NCBI GenBank assembly: GCA_038064915.1
Contig: JBBTSB010000005.1
Location: 10,615 to 74,614 of the forward strand
Length of the DNA stretch: 64,000 bases
DNA from: Patescibacteria group bacterium
GTDB taxonomy: Bacteria > Patescibacteriota > Minisyncoccia > 2-02-FULL-40-12 > IGHO2-01-FULL-4-A
Direction: 5' to 3'
Part shown: positions 5,187-59,588 of the stretch, in pieces
Numbering within the stretch: position 1 is the stretch's first letter
Layout: each line of letters starts with the position of its first letter
The notes under the pieces: model-generated
Told to the model about the DNA's origin: nothing
Database searches by the model: none
What the model saw: only the letters and a program-made list of their open reading frames with translations
Made by a program: the position numbers and the translations under genes

Positions 5187-5440
5187 GCCCTTTTTCAAAA
5201 ACCGGTGATTTTTCTGATGTAAAAGTTCTTTCACCTTTTGGAGAAATACCGTGGAATGAGCTTTCTCGATTCAGCGATACAGAAATGAAAAAATTGATGA
5301 TTAATGTCGTAAATCATTGCTATAATTTTCTTTATCTTTTGTATGGTGGCGCCAAAGGCGATGAGATCATTGAACTTTTAAAAGACACAGATCCCATGCC
5401 TCATTGGAACGACCCAACAGGAGAGCTGTACTGAATACGG

Positions 5441-5528
5441 CGGATAGGGTGGGATTCGAACCCACGGTCCGCCTAGGGCGGACGGCGGTTTAGTAAACCG
5501 CTGGTATAAACCACTAACCGACCTATCC
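5441..5528 (-). tRNA. Class II (long variable arm) Ser-like tRNA, apparent anticodon ACU
   Basis: Reverse complement folds as GGATAGG acceptor, T-loop GTGGG-TTCGAAT-CCCAC, variable hairpin GTCCGCC-CTAG-GGCGGAC and G73. The anticodon arm GCGGT-TTACTAA-ACCGC gives an unusual 5'-ACU-3'. No encoded CCA. Confidence 0.6.
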
Positions 5529-5542
5529 AAATTTTGACTTTG

Positions 5543-5630
5543 CGGAGGAGGTGGGACTCGAACCCACGAGCCAGTTTTACCCGGCAACCTCTTTAGCAAA
5601 GAGGCGGAATAGCCGCTATCCGACTCCTCC
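5543..5630 (-). tRNA. tRNA-Ser(GCU)
   Basis: GGAGGAG acceptor, anticodon arm CCTCT-TTGCTAA-AGAGG, long variable arm, T-loop TTCGAGT, G73; 88 nt. Confidence 0.8.
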
Positions 5631-26880: not shown

Positions 26881-26903
26881 GAAGATTATGATATCATAAG
26901 TTC

Positions 26904-27743
26904 GTGGATATTGCAAGACTCAAAACTGAATTCCTAGAGTACTTGGAAATTGAGAAAAACCGTTCTCCCAAGACGATCGAGAATTATGATCACTATATTG
27001 GCCGTATTTTGCAGTTTTTGAATGCGAAAACTCCCGGAGATCTTACCGAAGAGGGGATACGGAAGTTTCGTATCGACCTTAATCGTCAGCCTATAAAAAA
27101 AATCACCCAGAACTACCATATCATCGCCTTGCGATCGTTTTTGAAATATTTGGCGAAGCGCGATATCAAGGCGCTCGCACCGGAAAAACTCGAGCTTTCA
27201 AAACAGGAAGATCGCGAGGTTTCATTTCTGGAGCAGGATGAATTAAACAAAGTTCTGACATCTGCCGAGAACTTGCGCGATCGGGCCATTCTGGAAACAC
27301 TCTTCTCTACCGGTTTGCGCGTTTCTGAATTGATTTCGTTGAAGAGAAATGAGATTGACTTTAATCGTGGCGAGTTCACCGTCCGAGGGAAGGGGAGCAA
27401 GTTGCGTGTCGTTTTTCTTTCGGATTCGGCGATCGAGGCTATCGAGGCATATTTGGAAAAACGCACGGACATTGAGCCGGAACTGTTTCCCCTTACGGTG
27501 CGACAAATTCAGCGCATTGTCCGCAAATATGCTATCAAGGCTGGCATCGTCGGCAAGAAAGTTTCGCCACACTCACTTCGTCACAGCTATGCGACAGACC
27601 TGCTTCGTAACGGCGCGGATATTCGTAGCGTCCAAGCCATGCTCGGCCACGCGTCAGTCACCACTACGCAAATTTACACCCACGTGACGGACAAACAGCT
27701 TCGCGATATCCACAAACGATTTCATGGAAAATCCAAAGAATAG
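26904..27743 (+). CDS. Tyrosine recombinase (XerC/XerD family)
   Basis: N-terminal SAM-like core-binding domain; catalytic R..HSLRHSYAT...LGH....TTQIYTHV with Tyr. Confidence 0.85.
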   Translation: MDIARLKTEFLEYLEIEKNRSPKTIENYDHYIGRILQFLNAKTPGDLTEEGIRKFRIDLNRQPIKKITQNYHIIALRSFLKYLAKRDIKALAPEKLELSKQEDREVSFLEQDELNKVLTSAENLRDRAILETLFSTGLRVSELISLKRNEIDFNRGEFTVRGKGSKLRVVFLSDSAIEAIEAYLEKRTDIEPELFPLTVRQIQRIVRKYAIKAGIVGKKVSPHSLRHSYATDLLRNGADIRSVQAMLGHASVTTTQIYTHVTDKQLRDIHKRFHGKSKE

Positions 27744-28909: not shown

Positions 28910-31900
28910 ATGAAGCACTCATCACATGTTCTCGTAGTTCTCGTAGGGGTAGCGATACTAGTTGGTGGTACGTTGTTACGCGATGGAGGAGGGGATGTTC
29001 AAAACCAAAGTCCGGACGATCTTACCGCAAATATTAGTGAGGCAGTGGATTTGGAAACTTATGATCCTCAGAAACAGACTCTCTCTAGCATGGGCGCCGA
29101 GTCTATGAGTGATGGACCAAAACTTGCCAGCGATCAGATTTTAATGAAGATTAAGAACTCTTCTGCCCAAACCAGCGCTCAAGCAACTACAATTTTTAAA
29201 AGGTACGGCAAGGTGAAAACCGTACAGGAACATAAACTCAGAAAGACTAAGGGGGGAAGCGAGGAAGCTCTATTTGCCGCTGAATATCAGGTTGACAGAA
29301 AAACGTTGCCAGGTCTTTTACAGAAACTGAAAAAGGATTCTCGGGTAGAATACGCGCAGTTCAATTTTATCTATGAGCCCGACCTGATCCCCAACGACGC
29401 AAAATATACGAGCCAATGGGCTCACACCAAGACGAATGCTCCTGCCGGATGGGATCAATCGACGGGAAACGGTAGTGTAGTCATTGCTGTCATCGGAACG
29501 GGAGCAAAATTTGACCACGAGGATCTTGCCGCAAATATCTGGACCAACATTCTCGAGATTCCTTCGAATGGTATTGACGATGATGCGAATGGATTTGTTG
29601 ATGATATTCGCGGGTGGAATTTTGGAAGCAACAACAACAATGTGTCCGATACCGATGGACATGAAACGTCGGTAGCCGGAAGTGCCGCTGCGACGGGAAA
29701 CAACGTACTGGGAGTTGCTGGTGTGTGTTGGTCCTGCAAAATTATGCCCATTAAAGTGACATATACCTCTGCCAACGTATCTAAGGCAATTTACTATGCC
29801 GCCAACAATGGGGCGAAAGTGATTAACATGAGTTTTGGAAGTTACACCGTTGGTACATTTGGTCCGGATTCGGTAGTACGGACGGCAGTTGACTATGCTG
29901 TATCCAAGGGAGTGCTGGTGATTGCAACTGCGGGCAATGATTCCATAGAAACCAAGCGCTATCCCGGGGCGCTAGAAAATGTAATCGGTGTTGCCTCAAC
30001 GGACTCTTCAAATGGAAGATCAGGTTTTTCCAACTATGGAAGTTGGGTTGATATCGCTGCCCCAGGGTCAGGCGTTCTTTCTACCAAGACTACCGGCTAT
30101 GGATCCGTAAGTGGTACCTCGTTTTCCGCACCGTACATTGCAGGTTTAGCAGGGCTCTTGTTTTCTAAATATCCCGCTTTGTCAGTAGAAGATGCGCGTA
30201 ATGCCATAGAGTTTAATGCCAAAAAAATTGTTACCGATCAGTACATCGGTTCAGGGCTGGTGGACGTGGGTAAGAGCCTTGCTAATCCATACCCGACGCT
30301 TTTTGCAACGATAACGAGTCCTACCAATAATTCTATGATTTTCTCGACCGCGCCATTTCCCATAATCGGTACGGCAATCGGATCAAGCTACAAGCTGGAA
30401 TATCAAGCAGAAGGATCGAGTACATGGGTGCAATTTGGTAGCGGACCTCAAGTGATCAAGGGGGTGCTCGGTAAACTTGCCCTGAGCGATTTACCTACCT
30501 CCGTCTATGACTATAGAATACGCCTTACTGCCATCAACGGATCATTGGAGACGACGGATACCATTCTCGTATCTCGTCCGGGACCATACTTGTCCGGTTG
30601 GCCCAAGACTTCAGCTACGTCTCCCATCCTTGGAGCGCCAAAAATAGTAGATATCGATGGCAATGGAGATATGGAGCTCATCTATGGAGACAATCTTGGG
30701 TACGTGCGCATTCTCAATCACGATGGCCTTCCGCTCACCGGTTGGCCCCAAAAAGCAGCAGGAAACTATATTTTTGGAACACCGGCCGTGGGTGATGTTG
30801 ATGGTGATGGAGACAGGGAAGTAGTAGTGGCAACCTACAACGGAAGTGGAGTAGGGTATGTCACGATCTGGCATCACAATGGATCAAGACTCAATACTTC
30901 GTCACTTTCCGTTGGGCAGGTTCGTGGAGCAGTAGCTTTGGAGAACATGGATGATGACCAAGCTTTAGAGTTGGTTGTTGTAGGTGGTCGTTACCTAGAG
31001 GTACGCAATGCCGACTTCACAACCGTTCCCGGATGGCCCGCACTTTCCAAAGAGACGAACAACCAAACCCCATCAGCAACAGGTGATCTTAATGGCGATG
31101 GAAAAAAAGAAGTGGTTGCCTGTGGTTACCAGTATTGCACTGTCTACGACAACACCGGCAAGGTGATGGTTGACTGGCAGAAAGCCTCGTCCAATGTTCC
31201 TCCAACGTTGGCTGATGTCAACAATGACGGTACCGTTGATATTATTTATAGCGATAACAGTAAGCTGATCGTTAAGGACTATACTGGAAGTACTTTGTTC
31301 AGTACGACCATAGGCGTTGCAAGCGGCTACAACTTCTTGACAGTTGCAGATATCGATAACGACAACGTACCGGAGGTATTCCTTGCCACCCATACTGCTC
31401 CATACAAAATCTACGCTTGGCGTGTGAATGGGACATCACTGGCTGGTTGGCCCAAGAATTTGAGCTCAAGCGGGAGTGAGGTTTCTGTTGGAGATATCAA
31501 CGGTGATGGCAAACAAGATGTCCTTGTTGCTACGGAGGCCGATGGTAAGGTACACGCGTGGTCCTACGATGGTTCAGCTCTCGCAGGATTTCCTCTTAGT
31601 ACCGGTGGATTGATATGGCGCATACCAGCTATTGGAGATCTCAATGGAGATGGCAAAGTAGATATCGCAGTAGGTGATAGTCGTGGTACCATCCACGTGT
31701 GGTCGCAAGGATTTCCTTATCGCACTACCTCTATGCTGTGGCCTTCCGAGCGTATGAATGACAGCAACAACGCATATATTGTGGCAAAGACTATTCCCAG
31801 TCCGACTCCCACGCCAACTCCCACGCCGACTCCCACCACAACTCCAACTACTACTGCTACACCAACACCGACAGCAACACCCACGTCTACTCCTACCCCA

Positions 31901-32446
31901 ACGCCTACTTCTACACCGACAGCTACTCCAACTCCTACGGCAACACCTACAACTACGGTGACGTTGTCAGTAACCAAATCTGGTATTGGCAAGGGTAAGG
32001 TAACGAGTGCTCCTACAGGCATCGACTGCGGCAGCGTCTGTAGTGCAAACTTTGTCAAAGGCAATCTCGTGACACTCACCGCAACCCCGGAAGTGGGCTC
32101 ATATTTCTCAGCTTGGAGTGGTGCATGCACCGGAATTTCAAAGACCTGTACGGTCACTATGGACGTAGCAAAGACTGTCAATGCGCAGTTTAATCTCCCA
32201 AATCAACTGTTGACGGTAACAAAAAATGGCACCGGGACTGGCACCGTCGTCAGCAATGTGGCGCCAGTTAACTGCGGCACCACCTGTTCAGGATATTACA
32301 CCTTTGGTCGTGCCATAACTCTGACCGCCACACCGGCGGTGGGATCAATATTTACCGGCTGGAGTGGCTCTTGTACCGGTACCTCGACGTGCTCACTCCT
32401 GATGACTGAAGCAAAGAACGTCACAGCAACATTCTCGATACAATGA
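28910..32446 (+). CDS. Subtilisin-like (S8) serine protease with FG-GAP/VCBS beta-propeller, Thr/Pro-rich linker and two InlB-B-repeat-like C-terminal domains
   Basis: Catalytic triad contexts VIAVIGTGAKFDHEDL, DTDGHETSVAG and GTSFSAPYIAGLAG; repeated DIDGNGDMEL / VGDVDGDGDREVVVA / GDLNGDGKKEV motifs; PTPTPTPT linker; 2x V..S.P.GI.CG..CS..F..G..VTLTA.P..GS.F.GWSG.CTG. Confidence 0.85.
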   Translation: MKHSSHVLVVLVGVAILVGGTLLRDGGGDVQNQSPDDLTANISEAVDLETYDPQKQTLSSMGAESMSDGPKLASDQILMKIKNSSAQTSAQATTIFKRYGKVKTVQEHKLRKTKGGSEEALFAAEYQVDRKTLPGLLQKLKKDSRVEYAQFNFIYEPDLIPNDAKYTSQWAHTKTNAPAGWDQSTGNGSVVIAVIGTGAKFDHEDLAANIWTNILEIPSNGIDDDANGFVDDIRGWNFGSNNNNVSDTDGHETSVAGSAAATGNNVLGVAGVCWSCKIMPIKVTYTSANVSKAIYYAANNGAKVINMSFGSYTVGTFGPDSVVRTAVDYAVSKGVLVIATAGNDSIETKRYPGALENVIGVASTDSSNGRSGFSNYGSWVDIAAPGSGVLSTKTTGYGSVSGTSFSAPYIAGLAGLLFSKYPALSVEDARNAIEFNAKKIVTDQYIGSGLVDVGKSLANPYPTLFATITSPTNNSMIFSTAPFPIIGTAIGSSYKLEYQAEGSSTWVQFGSGPQVIKGVLGKLALSDLPTSVYDYRIRLTAINGSLETTDTILVSRPGPYLSGWPKTSATSPILGAPKIVDIDGNGDMELIYGDNLGYVRILNHDGLPLTGWPQKAAGNYIFGTPAVGDVDGDGDREVVVATYNGSGVGYVTIWHHNGSRLNTSSLSVGQVRGAVALENMDDDQALELVVVGGRYLEVRNADFTTVPGWPALSKETNNQTPSATGDLNGDGKKEVVACGYQYCTVYDNTGKVMVDWQKASSNVPPTLADVNNDGTVDIIYSDNSKLIVKDYTGSTLFSTTIGVASGYNFLTVADIDNDNVPEVFLATHTAPYKIYAWRVNGTSLAGWPKNLSSSGSEVSVGDINGDGKQDVLVATEADGKVHAWSYDGSALAGFPLSTGGLIWRIPAIGDLNGDGKVDIAVGDSRGTIHVWSQGFPYRTTSMLWPSERMNDSNNAYIVAKTIPSPTPTPTPTPTPTTTPTTTATPTPTATPTSTPTPTPTSTPTATPTPTATPTTTVTLSVTKSGIGKGKVTSAPTGIDCGSVCSANFVKGNLVTLTATPEVGSYFSAWSGACTGISKTCTVTMDVAKTVNAQFNLPNQLLTVTKNGTGTGTVVSNVAPVNCGTTCSGYYTFGRAITLTATPAVGSIFTGWSGSCTGTSTCSLLMTEAKNVTATFSIQ

Positions 32447-33578: not shown

Positions 33579-33589
33579 TAAGCAGTGGA

Positions 33590-34048
33590 CCAGGGGGTAT
33601 TGAAACCCCGTCTGGAAATATGTTTAACCGAGTACTACACGCGTAGCCCATCTTCTGTACAGATGATACTCAAAGTCGGGCGAAACGTATCATCCGTGTA
33701 CTGATTGATACAATGCATATCCAGCAGGACAACTAGAGATACAAGGCTACTCGCTTTTGACGCCCACTCCTCCTAGCGAGTATCAGGGGGTGAACGACAG
33801 CTTAACCGAAGTTAGGCTGTAGCGTATCCATAGCCGGAGCTATAGGCAGCTGAATAGGTGTTTTTAGCACTTATAGGTTTGCGAATAGTTTCACGAGGTG
33901 TTCGCAAGCTCGGCGTGCACTTGGTGTAAAGGTACTTCCATCAAAACTCGCAGGCCCATATGAAAATACTAACGCATTTCGTAAAAAAGTGTTACAACCC
34001 GCAGGGCCGACGCGTCGCCTTTCGGCAACGATCGACCCCACGGGGGAG
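33590..34048 (-). other. ~460-nt hairpin-rich non-coding segment (candidate structured RNA or long 3' UTR) between the GC-rich ORF and the terminator
   Basis: No ORF over 30 codons with an SD; several inverted repeats (GTATCA..TGATAC, TTGCGAA..TTCGCAA, GCC-TTTC-GGC); I could not match tmRNA or RNase P hallmarks by eye. Confidence 0.35.
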
Positions 34049-57683: not shown

Positions 57684-58253
57684 TTATCGATTAACGAGGA
57701 GCGGCAGGGGATTGAGGGCTTCACGATGAGCGTACATCCCAAAGTGCAGATGTGGAGGGGTGGTTTCGGCATTGCCAGTGTTTCCTACATATCCGATGAC
57801 CGTATCGGGAGTGACCGATTGGCCGATGTGAATGCCATCCGCAAACCGGTCCAGGTGTGCGTAGTAATATCGGCGCGCCCCCGAGCCGATGATGTACATG
57901 GCATTTCCTCCAAGCTCCACGTCTCCTTTATAGAGGACGTAGCCGGAGGTTCCGGAAAACACGGGTGTTCCTTTTGTAGCAAAAATATCCTGGCCTTCAT
58001 GTGTTCGATCATTCCCGCGCGGCGCGCCCCAGGTATCGGTAATACCCGATACTTTTGTTCCATACACCGGCATGAGGATAGTAGCATCCGGCTCCTGCGA
58101 CGCAAGCTTTGCTATTTTGTATGGTAGAGTGACCTGCTCAATAAAGCTCGTGATTTTTTCGGGGTGAGTTTTTACATATCGTATTCCAAACGCAAAAAAA
58201 CCCACTACGCAGATGAGAAATAATCCGCAAATGATAAAAAGTTTTTTGGGCAT
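57684..58253 (-). CDS. M23 family metallopeptidase (LytM-like), membrane-anchored
   Basis: N-terminal TM; HEGQDIFA....PV....G and PHLHFGMY M23 motifs. Confidence 0.8.
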   Translation of the reverse strand: MPKKLFIICGLFLICVVGFFAFGIRYVKTHPEKITSFIEQVTLPYKIAKLASQEPDATILMPVYGTKVSGITDTWGAPRGNDRTHEGQDIFATKGTPVFSGTSGYVLYKGDVELGGNAMYIIGSGARRYYYAHLDRFADGIHIGQSVTPDTVIGYVGNTGNAETTPPHLHFGMYAHREALNPLPLLVNR

Positions 58254-58424
58254 CTAGATACTATATACTACAAAAGAAAAAGAAAAAACTTACGATAAAC
58301 TGAGATTGTTAAAAGAGTTTCAATAGTGACAAAATAAACAACACGCCAGCAACGATCAGATAAATTCCATTTCGTGACCGGAAGTAAAGAAATATTCCAC
58401 AGAGCATGAGAATAAAATAAATCA

Positions 58425-58750
58425 TTTGCTCCCGGGCAGGGACTCAGTCGCGCCTCTCGCGATGCCGTCGCATCGCTCGGGCTGACCACCACCTCGCGGA
58501 TTCATCTGCTGATTCATCATCGCTCCGGCGTTCTCGCCCTGACGTGAGTGCGATTGCGCACTCACTCCCGTCATCAAACGTGAAGCGTTTGCTCCCGGGC
58601 AGGGACTCAGTCGCGCCTCTCGCGATGCCGTCGCATCGCTCGGGCTGACCACCACCTCGCGGATTCATCTGCTGATTCATCATCGCTCCGGCGTTCTCGC
58701 CCTGACGTGAGTGCGATTGCGCACTCACTCCCGTCATCAAACGTGAAGCG
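58425..58750. repeat. Two perfect 163-bp tandem repeats, each a 142-bp GC-rich unit plus the last 21 nt of tRNA-Gln
   Basis: Units 58425-58587 and 58588-58750 appear identical; each starts with TTTGCTCCCGGGCAGGGACTC (reverse complement of the tRNA-Gln 3' end) and carries the hairpins GCGATGC-CGTC-GCATCGC and GTGAGTGCG-ATT-GCGCACTCAC. Confidence 0.85.
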
Positions 58751-58754
58751 TTTG

Positions 58755-58825
58755 CTCCCGGGCAGGGACTCGAACCCCAATTACATGATTCAGAGTCATG
58801 TGTCCTACCATTAGACGACCCGGGA
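58755..58825 (-). tRNA. tRNA-Gln(CUG)
   Basis: U1:A72 and G73; D-arm GTCT-AATGGTA-GGAC; anticodon arm CATGA-CTCTGAA-TCATG; T-arm TGGGG-TTCGAGT-CCCTG. Confidence 0.8.
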
Positions 58826-58878
58826 ATGTTTCTATACAATACCGAAAAATTGCGTTAGAGTAAAGAGAAAATCGAGCC

Positions 58879-59343
58879 ATGAAGCAAATCGAAAAAGCAA
58901 AATATGAAATGCCGTTTGAAAGTTCTGAAGAAGATTCCCATACGGTTAGCGTTTATGAAAAAAAATATGATGTATATCGTTTAATGCAACTTGCCCAAGA
59001 ACTTATCGTCACCCGTTTCAACACAGAACAATTGGCCTTAAAATTCCTTGATGATGAATGTTGGGATGATGAAAATGGAAATTTAACTACACCAAGAAAA
59101 GTTCTTGAAGCAATTCAATCAGTACGGGGAAATTATGGAGACGCTATGCGGAATCATCCTCTCTTACTTGATCATATTGCTGCTATAAAAGAAGCCGATC
59201 CTAATTATCCCATTCTCCTTGGACCGGATGGAACTGTTATTGATGGTGCACATCGTGTTATAAAGGCTCTACTAAATGGTGCGTCTGATGTTCCCATACG
59301 TCGGTTTGAGACTATGCCAGAAGATGCTAAGATGCAATCTTAA
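58879..59343 (+). CDS. ParB-like nuclease domain protein (154 aa)
   Basis: C-terminal ILLGPDGTVIDGAHRVIKAL resembles the ParB/sulfiredoxin-fold DGxHR motif. Confidence 0.5.
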   Translation: MKQIEKAKYEMPFESSEEDSHTVSVYEKKYDVYRLMQLAQELIVTRFNTEQLALKFLDDECWDDENGNLTTPRKVLEAIQSVRGNYGDAMRNHPLLLDHIAAIKEADPNYPILLGPDGTVIDGAHRVIKALLNGASDVPIRRFETMPEDAKMQS

Positions 59344-59348
59344 ATTTT

Positions 59349-59588
59349 ATGTACACGCTTTACCTCATGCTCTGTCGCGACGACTCCATCTACACCGGCA
59401 TTACGACGGATATGGAACGGAGATTTAAGGAGCACCAAAATGGAGAGGGGAGCAGGTATACGCGGGCGAAAAAGGCAGTGAAGATTTTGTATACGGAAAA
59501 GTTTAAGACGCGAAGTAAAGCGTCAAAGAGGGAATATGAGATCAAGAGCTGGAGTAGGCAGAGAAAGTTAGCTATGATCAGCATATGA
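59349..59588 (+). CDS. GIY-YIG nuclease family small protein
   Basis: YTLYLMLCRDDSIYTGITTDMERRFKEHQNG GIY-YIG motif. Confidence 0.75.
   Translation: MYTLYLMLCRDDSIYTGITTDMERRFKEHQNGEGSRYTRAKKAVKILYTEKFKTRSKASKREYEIKSWSRQRKLAMISI

Follow-up and report, generated by a model that had tools for sequence, protein, structure and literature searches.

tRNA-like structures include the tRNA-like domain of tmRNA, the 3' tRNA-like structures (TLS) of plant viruses and of the Neurospora retroplasmid, bacterial YrlA, and mascRNA. Guides or folded target sites are carried by other mobile elements, such as the bridge/seek RNA of IS110, the EBS of group II introns, the guides of IS200/IS605, and folded single-stranded DNA sites (integron attC and CTX phage attP). 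These guide-bearing systems encode or adjoin a recombinase or a reverse transcriptase (RT), and they are not known to duplicate ~20 bp of the target. Type III toxin-antitoxin systems (ToxI-like) consist of ~36-nt repeats followed by their own endoribonuclease toxin gene, and a link to tRNA is not known. Islands that target tRNA genes are defined by the Islander approach as a regenerated tRNA gene with a displaced 3' fragment as a direct repeat (PMC4383910). In Dehalococcoides, tandem att repeats occur at ssrA, as do islands without integration modules, termed "cis-mobilizable elements" (PMC3146451).

The locus described here lies in a 64,000-nucleotide stretch of Patescibacteria DNA (the window). 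A tRNA-Gln(CUG) gene on the minus strand (58825..58754/5; ARAGORN and Rfam RF00005, 59.8 bits) is followed by a tandem array at 58425-58771, for which Tandem Repeats Finder (TRF) reported a period of 163, 2.1 copies, 100% matches, and zero indels. An earlier note on this DNA had described identical 163-bp copies and a twofold duplication of the last 21 nt of the tRNA at 163-bp spacing, and both descriptions are accurate. The 21-mer GAGTCCCTGCCCGGGAGCAAA, hereafter the core, extends from T-loop position 57 to the discriminator G73 plus CAAA and is present at exactly three sites (58751-71, 58588-608, and 58425-45). No further site was found in the 64 kb with up to 3 mismatches allowed, and the chance expectation is 0. 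The 142-bp unit between the cores has a GC content of ~0.62 versus 0.30-0.45 in the immediate flanks, and it folds into strong hairpins, in agreement with the same note. The parts of the array are as follows.

58755..58825, minus strand: tRNA-Gln(CUG) gene (ARAGORN and Rfam RF00005); CCA is not encoded
58751..58771, minus strand: core copy 1, T-loop G57 to G73 plus CAAA, within and at the end of the tRNA gene (exact 21-mer match)
58739..58753, minus strand: hp1 of unit 1, the spacer hairpin AAACG-CUUCA-CGUUU directly 3' of the tRNA (folds and alignments)
58730..58736, minus strand: X of unit 1 (UGACGGG), partner in helix 1 of the core's acceptor 3' strand, CCCG...A72
58707..58728, minus strand: hp2 of unit 1, a 9-bp stem with a 4-nt loop, GUGAGUGCG-CAAU-CGCACUCAC
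58700..58704, minus strand: Y of unit 1 (CAGGG), complement of the T-stem 3' strand of the core, CCCUG (helix 3)
58609..58698, minus strand: conserved GC-rich module of unit 1, ~88 nt starting with GAACG (alignment identity and covariation)
58588..58608, minus strand: core copy 2, with which the structured module of unit 1 ends on its 3' side (exact 21-mer match)
58591..58740, minus strand: covariance-model match of unit 1, from X to N73 of the core (model R1, 148.9 bits, E=1e-29)
58446..58587, minus strand: unit 2, 100% identical to unit 1, with all sub-parts at minus 163 (TRF)
58428..58577, minus strand: covariance-model match of unit 2 (model R1, 148.9 bits)
58425..58445, minus strand: core copy 3, the displaced original tRNA end, abutting the host flank TGATTT...

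The last A of core copy 3 is the first base of the ATG of a 38-aa hydrophobic ORF, for which no database record was found. The downstream genes in the window are this ORF and an M23 peptidase gene, neither of which is a toxin. Homologues of the M23 peptidase were at most 70% identical and none adjoined a tRNA, and a 154-aa neighbour protein had no homologues (orphan). An independently assembled contig from Hainich groundwater (ENA, L003) has the identical two-unit structure. The Logan contig L005 starts exactly 30 nt ahead of the last unique base, as would be expected if a k=31 graph branched at the unit-core-unit junction. Since the number of copies in a perfect 163-bp repeat is beyond what short reads can resolve, the "two copies" are at least two.

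We estimate a probability of approximately 55% that the array consists of two or more tandem copies of an element (~145-240 bp) from an apparently undescribed family of protein-less, structured, RNA-like elements located immediately 3' of tRNA genes in Patescibacteria, which are read through from the tRNA, processed as tRNAs are, and moved between tRNA genes. This proposal starts from the relatives of the unit. A spurious 131-aa ORF through the repeat was searched with HMMER against 1.84 billion proteins and retrieved translated relatives. Looking for the unit elsewhere, as the earlier note had proposed, yielded the same architecture at six other tRNA genes on other Patescibacteria contigs, namely, Lys-CUU, Leu-UAA, Arg-CCG, Arg-UCU, Ser-UGA, and a second Gln-CUG. 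On the DNA level, the family comprises these seven loci only (seven tRNA genes, six anticodon types), each with a single unit or two perfect tandem units. Behind tRNA-Lys(CUU) (L083/L084) is a 174-bp repeat with 2.1 copies that are 100% identical; single units are located behind tRNA-Leu(UAA) (L086), tRNA-Arg(CCG) (L095-L100), tRNA-Arg(UCU) (L101-L105), and the second tRNA-Gln(CUG) (L106). The copy behind tRNA-Ser(UGA), the seventh, is diverged; it was found by the covariance model and is on the same contig as the tRNA-Arg(UCU) copy. Perfect tandem pairs occur in two lineages (the window tRNA-Gln and tRNA-Lys).

The link to a tRNA gene and the duplication of its 3' end are invariable in the family. 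The direct repeat is 18-23 nt at all loci and extends from T-loop position 56/57 to 1-5 nt past N73; in L106, it stops at the encoded CCA. The order on the tRNA strand is hp1, X, hp2, Y, an 88-nt GC-rich two-domain module, and the copy of the tRNA 3' end (from 56/57). Every unit consists of a spacer hairpin, a larger module of 148-149 nt (this length in 5 of the 6 aligned units) that contains the conserved 88-nt GC-rich part, and the copy of the upstream tRNA 3' end. The sequence between the repeats is 142 bp in the window and 148-224 bp in the relatives. The 88-nt part is constant in length and shows 72-88% identity (68-79% for the window row) among the six correctly delimited copies, the L106 segment being left out. 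The conserved family motif is GAGAACGCCGGAGCGAT. The counterpart of hp1 in the relatives is an A-tract/hairpin/U-tract; in several of them, it resembles a terminator (A-tract/AU-stem/U-tract) and could limit read-through.

No neighbouring gene is common to the family loci, and the downstream genes differ at every locus. Toxin-antitoxin genes adjoin several members (HicB at L083, ParE/YafQ at L095, and PemK at L106). The element is absent from 24 of the 31 distinct tRNA genes examined. The earlier note had suggested a comparison of the 3' flank of tRNA-Gln in relatives. L106 carries one unit, and ten other CPR tRNA-Gln(CUG) loci found in metagenomes with a 24-mer probe from the anticodon arm, which differ in their acceptor stems, have no element behind them. 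The distribution is sporadic and mobile-like, with six tRNA species, no fixed context, and two copies on one contig, and this is typical of selfish or mobile DNA. Neither an empty site nor a polymorphic strain was found, and the distribution suggests that the element may be mobile.

The units share a conserved fold. In the consensus of 45 pairs, 91.8% were paired versus 75.1% in shuffles, and 0 of 500 shuffles reached the observed value. Compensatory changes were present in 26 pairs, and slid controls were 37-42% paired. After realignment to the covariance model, 95.4% were paired and compensatory changes were found in 30 of the 45 pairs. The hp2 stem has compensatory changes in 7 of its 9 pairs across the family. 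The GC-rich module forms two domains, P1/P2/hp3 and P6/P5/hp4, with tandem G.A motifs; in hp3 and hp4, tandem G.A/A.G mismatches alternate with Watson-Crick pairs. RNAalifold gave -51.6 kcal/mol on the tRNA strand versus -45.7 on the opposite strand. Taken together, the tandem G.A motifs and these energies favour an RNA of the tRNA strand. A wobble strand test, with 8 cells of G.U versus 5 of A.C, favoured neither strand.

X and Y match the 3' end of the cognate tRNA. A duplex-energy matrix of X/Y against all cores was too noisy for GC-rich 12-mers, and a fixed-register count was used instead. X and Y together paired with their own core at 11, 11, 10, 8, 11, and 9 out of 11 positions, which was the row maximum in 6 of 6 units. 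The Y helix is 89-98% paired, with compensatory changes in 3-5 of its 6 pairs. In the window, Y (CAGGG) is the Watson-Crick complement of the core and differs from the tRNA's own UGGGG. The X helix is 67-80% paired and is weak or out of register in L101a and L106, and the acceptor-like stem has mismatches at 2:71 and 3:70. The X:core and Y:core helices are contiguous on the core strand, with an acceptor-type helix on a T-type helix and a single-stranded N73(-CCA) end. Where a T-loop would be expected, the unit has the GC module and no T-loop sequence. In our structural model, the pairing of X and Y with the core would form a tRNA-like coaxial acceptor/T-type helix in which hp2 takes the position of the D and anticodon arms, and the T-loop is replaced by the GC module.

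Co-transcription of the unit with the tRNA is possible because no terminator was detected between them, and elements that tail tRNA genes in this manner are probably co-transcribed with the tRNA. We speculate that the unit is transcribed by read-through from the tRNA promoter. Its tRNA-like ends may make the transcript a substrate of RNase P, RNase Z, and the CCA-adding enzyme, such that each repeat would yield one small stable RNA. An array of a tRNA-processed small RNA, an alternative raised in the earlier note, is closer to the evidence than an att scar, and the processing would be as proposed here. The element may have moved between tRNA genes by recombination within the segment from the T-loop to the 3' end. 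Recombination of this type would regenerate the tRNA and displace a fragment, as tRNA-targeting integrative elements do, and the enzyme would act in trans. The perfect tandem pair may have arisen when the 21-bp repeats underwent unequal exchange or slippage, or it may go back to the insertion of a multimer.

Searches for known relatives gave no match. In Rfam 15 (including tRNA-like RNAs, tmRNA, SRP, RNase P, and self-cleaving ribozymes), positions 58200-59000 yielded noise only at E<=10, and the units of L084, L086, L099, L105, and L106 yielded no match at E<=1. BLAST searches of phages and plasmids with the units of the window and of L086 also returned noise only, IMG/VR contained no related sequence, and scans of viral collections with the conserved family motifs gave chance matches or none. 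A search of a library of papers found no description of the element. The possibility that the unit is a fragment of a known element, which would have overturned the earlier reading, therefore received no support from Rfam, phage, plasmid, IMG/VR, or literature searches. Exact scans of viral, GTDB-representative, and JGI metagenome collections with a 22-mer from hp2 gave zero matches; this probe is window-specific and was the wrong one because hp2 covaries. As the earlier note had stated, no integrase is nearby: Pfam and PHROG scans of the flanking ORFs detected none, the ORFs of the 142-bp unit had no Pfam or PHROG match, and the sole tyrosine recombinase in the window is a XerD-like ORF at 26892-27740, 31 kb away.

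Several other candidates were rejected. Matches to 17-18 nt of the core (2 in viral and 60 in genome collections) were at approximately chance level and in GC-rich genomes. Only five of these were true tRNA-Gln(UUG) genes, with duplications in 0 of 5, and the match L033 lies in what reads as a murB coding sequence. A chance match was also obtained with a repetitive 356-aa "protein" (P0124), which is in fact a satellite of 204 bp on a presumably eukaryotic, chromosome-scale scaffold of 49 Mb. ARAGORN did not call a pseudo-tRNA in the unit. Hammerhead, HDV, and other ribozymes had no Rfam match, and a hammerhead is also incompatible with the junction strands. The similarity to SRP/Alu is superficial, with no Rfam match. 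A MITE does not fit because inverted repeats are lacking at the ends of the unit (CGCTTCACG... and ...GGCGCGACT) and the flanking repeat of 18-23 nt is always a tRNA 3' end.

A more specific proposal on the function of the unit is tentative and, in our opinion, rather doubtful. The unit may be a self-contained RNA device in which X and Y act as guide-like segments that fit the T-stem and the acceptor 3' strand of whichever tRNA is chosen. It would then be either a protein-less insertion element mobilised in trans, which picks tRNA genes by base-pairing, rides on the tRNA promoter and processing enzymes, and amplifies as tandem unit-length copies, or a riboregulator acting in cis that alternately sequesters the real tRNA 3' end and the decoy copy.

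A related but non-mobile explanation is an ncRNA or cis-regulator that is linked to the tRNA and encoded by the host, for example, a switch in which X/Y pair with the real tRNA 3' strand and block maturation or pair with the downstream decoy, and the GC module is a sensor or protein-binding domain. X and Y are able to pair equally with either core; the upstream one is used in the single-sequence MFE structure and the downstream one in the consensus fold. Furthermore, the decoy never differs from the tRNA end, the GC-rich part is strongly conserved, and a GC content above that of the flanks is typical of structural RNAs. However, the six different tRNA species without conserved context, the absence from most tRNA genes examined (including the ten tRNA-Gln(CUG) loci), and the selfish or mobile type of pattern, with two copies on one contig and perfect tandems in two lineages, make a host function unlikely.

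The earlier note had pointed out that integrases targeting tRNA genes leave such 3'-end duplications. The pattern does match that of tRNA-targeting elements, with a T-loop to 3' end segment, a regenerated tRNA, and fragments downstream, and 142 bp without an integrase is anomalous among them. A tRNA-Gln-specific element, or a miniature cis-mobilizable one, may have lost all but its att-proximal DNA, and the attL-142 bp-attR remnant may then have been duplicated by an integrase or unequal crossing-over. The repeated segment, which includes a few nt past the tRNA, with the regenerated tRNA and displaced fragment, is the footprint of tRNA islands (PMC4383910), tandem att repeats and islands without integration modules are known behind ssrA (PMC3146451), and the tandem copies are identical. 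Nevertheless, we do not regard the unit as an accidental att scar because it belongs to a conserved family behind seven tRNA genes with a covarying fold, and the duplicated tRNA end takes part in this fold as one of its integral, paired strands. Remnants of random deletion would not be expected to persist as a ~150-nt sequence of constant length with covarying helices behind six tRNA species, with X and Y tracking each tRNA. The tandem G.A motifs point to selection at the RNA level, no integrase is present within 30 kb, and the searches of phage, plasmid, and viral sequences retrieved nothing related. A scar of this type is accordingly quite improbable.

An RNA-mediated element, similar to a SINE, retrozyme, or retroplasmid, is a long shot. 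The tRNA-processing enzymes would cut out a tRNA-like RNA, which an RT in trans would then copy, possibly from a circular form (with rolling-circle synthesis leading to tandems), and the product would be re-inserted at tRNA genes. The tRNA-like 3' end, perfect unit-length tandems in two lineages, lack of coding capacity, and structure apparently under RNA-level selection are consistent with this route. However, RT is absent from the vicinity, as are a poly-A tract and variable target-site duplication. Where the tRNA gene has no CCA, the repeats bear the genomic trailer (N73-CA...), which argues against a mature CCA-tailed template. The tRNA-primed array that the earlier note had also considered is disfavoured for the same reason, since the window repeat carries the genomic trailer G73-CAAA and not the mature G73-CCA, and CCA is present only where it is genome-encoded (L106).

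A graph loop or a collapsed or expanded assembly boundary, also suggested in the earlier note, is hardly credible although the perfect repeat exceeds common k-mers in length and Logan contigs break there, because the same structure is present in two independent assemblies, the unit-core-unit junction needs either a circle or two or more copies in tandem, and single-copy relatives with the same flanking duplication at five other loci make the feature real whatever its copy number.

If confirmed, the mobile, tRNA-tailing family that we favour would be a new structured-RNA family in Patescibacteria, a huge and poorly understood radiation. It would also represent a new mode of association between an element and tRNA genes, in which a ~150-nt non-coding unit carries a copy and a complement of the 3' end of its target tRNA. 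The RNA device, in either version, would add a new class of RNA element coupled to tRNAs in the ultra-small CPR bacteria. That X and Y match each tRNA points to target recognition that a few substitutions may alter, which would be of interest to the field of RNA-guided recombination. If an integrase-bearing parent element exists, the family would be an unusual miniature variant of tRNA-targeting integrative elements. The questions raised are how elements that encode no enzyme evolve to target tRNA genes and to mimic tRNAs, whether tRNA-processing enzymes mature non-tRNA RNAs in CPR, and whether a trans-acting recombinase or RT services the elements.

The unit resembles several known systems in part. 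Similar to ToxI arrays, it is a structured non-coding unit in tandem direct repeats that would be cut to unit length, and toxin-antitoxin genes adjoin several family members. In contrast to them, its period is 163 nt, it is linked to a tRNA, it has no conserved downstream gene, and the downstream genes in the window are not toxins. The unit shares with guide-bearing mobile elements short segments that flank a hairpin, complement the insertion target, and change with it; it differs in having no recombinase or RT nearby and no Rfam match and in duplicating the target end. SINEs and MITEs are also small, non-autonomous, and non-coding with direct-repeat flanks, and SINEs often have tRNA-related parts, whereas the unit has neither terminal inverted repeats nor an A-tail and its flanking repeat is always the same tRNA segment rather than an arbitrary site.

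The resemblance to tRNA-like structures includes an acceptor-like helix on a T-type helix, an N73(-CCA) end, a large inserted non-tRNA domain, and plausible handling by RNase P, RNase Z, and the CCA-adding enzyme. However, the 3' strand of the unit is an exact copy of the neighbouring tRNA end, the GC module is present instead of a T-loop, the unit is chained to a tRNA gene and can be tandem, and the Rfam models of these structures give no match. The tRNA/tmRNA-targeting integrative elements and CIMEs share with the unit the insertion in the 3' part of the tRNA, the boundary in the T-loop, the regenerated tRNA, the displaced direct repeat, and tandem arrays with repeated att-like copies. CIMEs also have att-like flanks, lack recombination and transfer genes, and are without an integrase (PMC3146451). 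Integrative elements are kilobases in size, carry genes, and depend on a cognate integrase for one target, their own or an ancestral one, whereas the unit is a conserved non-coding structure of 142-224 bp that is self-complementary to its att-like repeat and is found behind six tRNA species.

The repeat array lies behind a tRNA-Gln(CUG) gene.
58825-58755, minus strand: tRNA-Gln(CUG) gene (ARAGORN; Rfam tRNA, 59.8 bits)
58425-58771, minus strand: tandem array, period 163, 2.1 copies, 100% identity, 0 indels (Tandem Repeats Finder)

The 21-mer GAGTCCCTGCCCGGGAGCAAA comprises the tRNA from T-loop G57 to G73, followed by CAAA. As the earlier note had claimed, this tRNA end is duplicated at a spacing of exactly 163 bp; three identical copies are present, and a search of the whole window allowing as many as 3 mismatches returned no others (chance expectation 0). 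The 142-bp spacer is GC-rich, as described previously (approximately 0.62 in locally AT-rich surroundings). An assembly artefact had been considered. However, an ENA contig assembled independently from Hainich groundwater (L003) carries an identical two-unit structure. Logan contigs of three runs end at the repeat, and another contig of this locus (L005) starts exactly 30 nt ahead of where the unique flank begins, from which we infer the branching of a k=31 graph between unit-core-unit and unit-core-flank, the core being the tRNA-derived segment. Since the structure of L003 and the start of L005 agree, the repeat is real and the artefact is excluded for the feature itself; only the exact copy number is left to it, two being a lower bound.

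The absence of a nearby integrase was also borne out. None was present among the flanking ORFs, which encode an orphan protein, a GIY-YIG protein, an M23 peptidase, and an AsnC-type regulator. The best-named homologues of the peptidase are in MAGs of Yanofskybacteria, Taylorbacteria, and 'Patescibacteria group', which places the organism among CPR bacteria. A synteny comparison gave nothing, the neighbouring proteins being orphans or having no tRNA linkage in relatives. The following features of the window were recorded.
26892-27740, plus strand: XerD-like tyrosine recombinase (4.7e-41 with phmmer to E. coli XerD), presumably the chromosomal Xer; no other recombinase lies in the 64 kb
58309-58425, minus strand: strongly hydrophobic 38-aa ORF, MIYFILMLCGIFLYFRSRNGIYLIVAGVLFILSLLKLF, with no gene call in public assemblies; its ATG overlaps the final A of the third tRNA-end copy, GGGAG lies just upstream, and in character the product resembles a small membrane peptide or type I toxin
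58879-59343, plus strand: orphan 154-aa protein, divergent from tRNA-Gln, with no homologue other than itself among 5.8 billion clusters; its DGxHR-like C-terminus matches PHROG 17560 (2.7e-9)
59349-59588, plus strand: stand-alone 79-aa GIY-YIG nuclease, after the 154-aa protein gene
33583-33957, minus strand: tmRNA gene (Rfam, 90.7 bits), not called by ARAGORN
5439-5528 and 5542-5630, minus strand: adjacent tRNA-Ser genes, one with the unusual anticodon ACT (A34) according to ARAGORN
2488-2526 and 2895-2933: 39-nt palindromic repeat ACCCCTCCCTTTAAGGTAAAGGGAGGTTGGGAGGGTATA, two copies, 407 bp apart, 92% identity
21871-25520 and 31795-31956: segments of paralogous genes that have diverged (repeats 68-84% identical), also a Thr/Pro-rich coding microsatellite region with 12-36-nt periods
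about 58793-58797: tRNA-Gln anticodon position, at which three Logan contigs from three runs (L001, L002, and L004) begin

The shared break point of these three contigs implies that the genome contains another tRNA-Gln gene elsewhere, an isoacceptor (UUG) whose 5' half is identical.

The window unit had no match in Rfam at E<=10 and no similarity to phage and plasmid collections, and a window-specific 22-mer was missing from viral, genome, and metagenome collections. The tRNA-derived core, used as a probe, returned chance matches in GC-rich genomes and five ordinary tRNA-Gln(UUG) genes. Relatives were found through proteins. Several reading frames are open across the GC-rich unit, and a spurious 131-aa ORF across the tRNA and both units was searched against 1.84 billion representative proteins. 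Several short 'proteins' matched its unit-encoded part (motif ENAGAM...PRGGGQPE); one (P0122) is internally repeated in tandem, and another (P0126) starts with a translated tRNA 3' end. A profile search added eight more. DNA obtained for five matching proteins revealed six further tRNA insertion sites. A 204-bp satellite with more than 50 copies on a 49-Mb chromosome-scale scaffold (L085; GCA_052425735.1, CM126635.1), presumably eukaryotic, has the peptide MNPRxGG in common with the unit in translation and was judged a chance match.

Family members at other tRNA genes
L083/L084: tRNA-Lys(CUU); perfect 174-bp repeat, 2.1 copies, 100% identity, every unit ending in CGAGTCCTGTTGGGGGCACA
L086 ('Candidatus Pacebacteria' MAG): tRNA-Leu(UAA); one unit
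L095-L100: tRNA-Arg(CCG); one unit, expanded by 73 nt that form two hairpins
L101-L105: tRNA-Arg(UCU); one unit
L106: a different tRNA-Gln(CUG); one unit, repeat ending at the encoded CCA
L101, on the contig of the Arg(UCU) copy: tRNA-Ser(UGA); diverged copy, 64.7 bits with the covariance model

The family is obligatorily attached to tRNA genes. All seven loci carry an 18-23-nt direct repeat starting at T-loop position 56/57 and ending just past the discriminator or at an encoded CCA. In all sequence examined, 7 of 31 distinct tRNA genes have a downstream tRNA-end duplicate, and all seven are covariance-model matches. Units are single or perfect tandem pairs, the genes beside them differ at every locus, and the distribution is sporadic: one relative's tRNA-Gln(CUG) has the unit, whereas ten other CPR tRNA-Gln(CUG) genes, found via the anticodon arm, have ordinary 3' flanks. 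The Ser copy (L101 1983-2134, minus strand) falls within an over-long 'RuvX' gene call; it has no hp2, a long composite hairpin replaces hp1, and its 10-nt Y is perfect. The 73-nt expansion (L095 6143-6215) adds two hairpins within the GC module, one of which (AAAGCCAA-TTGA-TTGGCTTT) resembles the family's hp2. Toxin-antitoxin genes (HicB-like, ParE/YafQ, PemK/MazF, and MNT-HEPN) directly adjoin several members and may simply mark variable regions beside tRNA genes; they lie at L083 5171-5482, L095 6270-6808, L106 6578-7006, and L083 8065-8902.

The family is conserved and structured, with a module length of 148-149 nt in five of the six aligned units. On the tRNA strand, the tRNA end is followed by the spacer hairpin hp1 (A-tract, stem, U-tract; AAACG-CUUCA-CGUUU in the window), then X (4-7 nt, like the tRNA 5' acceptor strand except for UA, UG, or GA at positions 2-3), a conserved GA, hp2 (9-bp stem, 4-nt loop, wholly different in sequence among members with pairing always kept), Y (5-10 nt), an 88-nt GC-rich module (domains P1/P2/hp3 and P6/P5/hp4), and the core. 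The modules are 72-88% identical across six correctly delimited copies, and the window copy is 68-79% identical to the others. A hand-drawn structure of 45 pairs was 91.8% paired on the MAFFT alignment versus 75.1% for column shuffles (0/500 reached the observed value) and 37-42% for partner-slid controls, with compensatory changes in 26 pairs; the model-refined alignment gave 95.4% and 30.

The unit's 3' end repeats the tRNA end and at the same time forms one of the paired strands in the fold. Core positions about 57/59-65 pair with Y and about 65/66-69/72 with X, contiguously on the core strand. In fixed register, the X+Y of each unit paired best with its own core, at 11, 11, 10, 8, 11, and 9 of 11 positions, the row maximum in 6/6 rows (one tie). 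Judged by sequence, Y is not a relic of the tRNA, since the window's CAGGG is the Watson-Crick complement of CCCUG, while the tRNA itself has UGGGG as the 5' strand of its T-stem. The modelled topology matches that of a tRNA, with an acceptor-type helix, one arm, a T-type helix, and the GC module in place of the T-loop. Inside hp3 and hp4, tandem G.A/A.G mismatches swap with Watson-Crick pairs between members, and the tRNA strand gives the more stable consensus fold (-51.6 versus -45.7 kcal/mol). These two features favour a predicted RNA transcribed in the tRNA direction; wobble counts alone leave the strand undecided.

No terminator was detected between tRNA and unit, and read-through from the promoter of the tRNA probably transcribes the unit. 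Given its tRNA-like end, the RNA would probably be processed by RNase P, RNase Z, and the CCA-adding enzyme, and an array would yield unit-length RNAs. The element appears to have moved among tRNA genes, since it occurs at six tRNA species without conserved context, most tRNA genes lack it, and one contig carries two copies (84% identical, the Ser copy's best match). Insertion may occur by recombination within the T-loop-to-3'-end segment with the tRNA regenerated, as tRNA-targeting islands do (PMC4383910); the enzyme would necessarily act in trans. Identical tandem copies may arise from unequal exchange between the 21-bp repeats or from multimer insertion. Perfect duplicates in two of six lineages suggest that amplification is recurrent.

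A non-mobile riboregulator of the host, switching between the true tRNA end and a decoy, is mechanistically attractive; however, it fits the sporadic distribution poorly and we regard it as unlikely. An integrase scar or a miniature CIME accounts for the repeats, but leaves the conserved fold, constant length, and X/Y matching across six tRNAs unexplained, and is quite improbable. Retro-type spread would account for tandem copies, but there is no RT evidence, and it is the least probable of the three. The window repeat ends in G73-CAAA instead of CCA, which argues against copying from a mature tRNA.

The closest known systems are tRNA-targeting integrative elements and CIMEs, with the same insertion signature, and tRNA-like structures (the tmRNA tRNA-like domain and viral and retroplasmid TLSs), with the same kind of fold. 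Should a cognate integrase-bearing parent element turn up, the family would count as no more than an unusual miniature form of the former class. The family has neither integrase nor cargo, in contrast to the former, and neither T-loop nor Rfam match, in contrast to the latter, and its conserved motifs had no counterpart in Rfam, among phage, plasmid, and IMG/VR sequences, or in the literature searched. Since it fails defining features of each system and the motifs are unmatched, we rate the family as a tRNA-coupled RNA element of a new kind.
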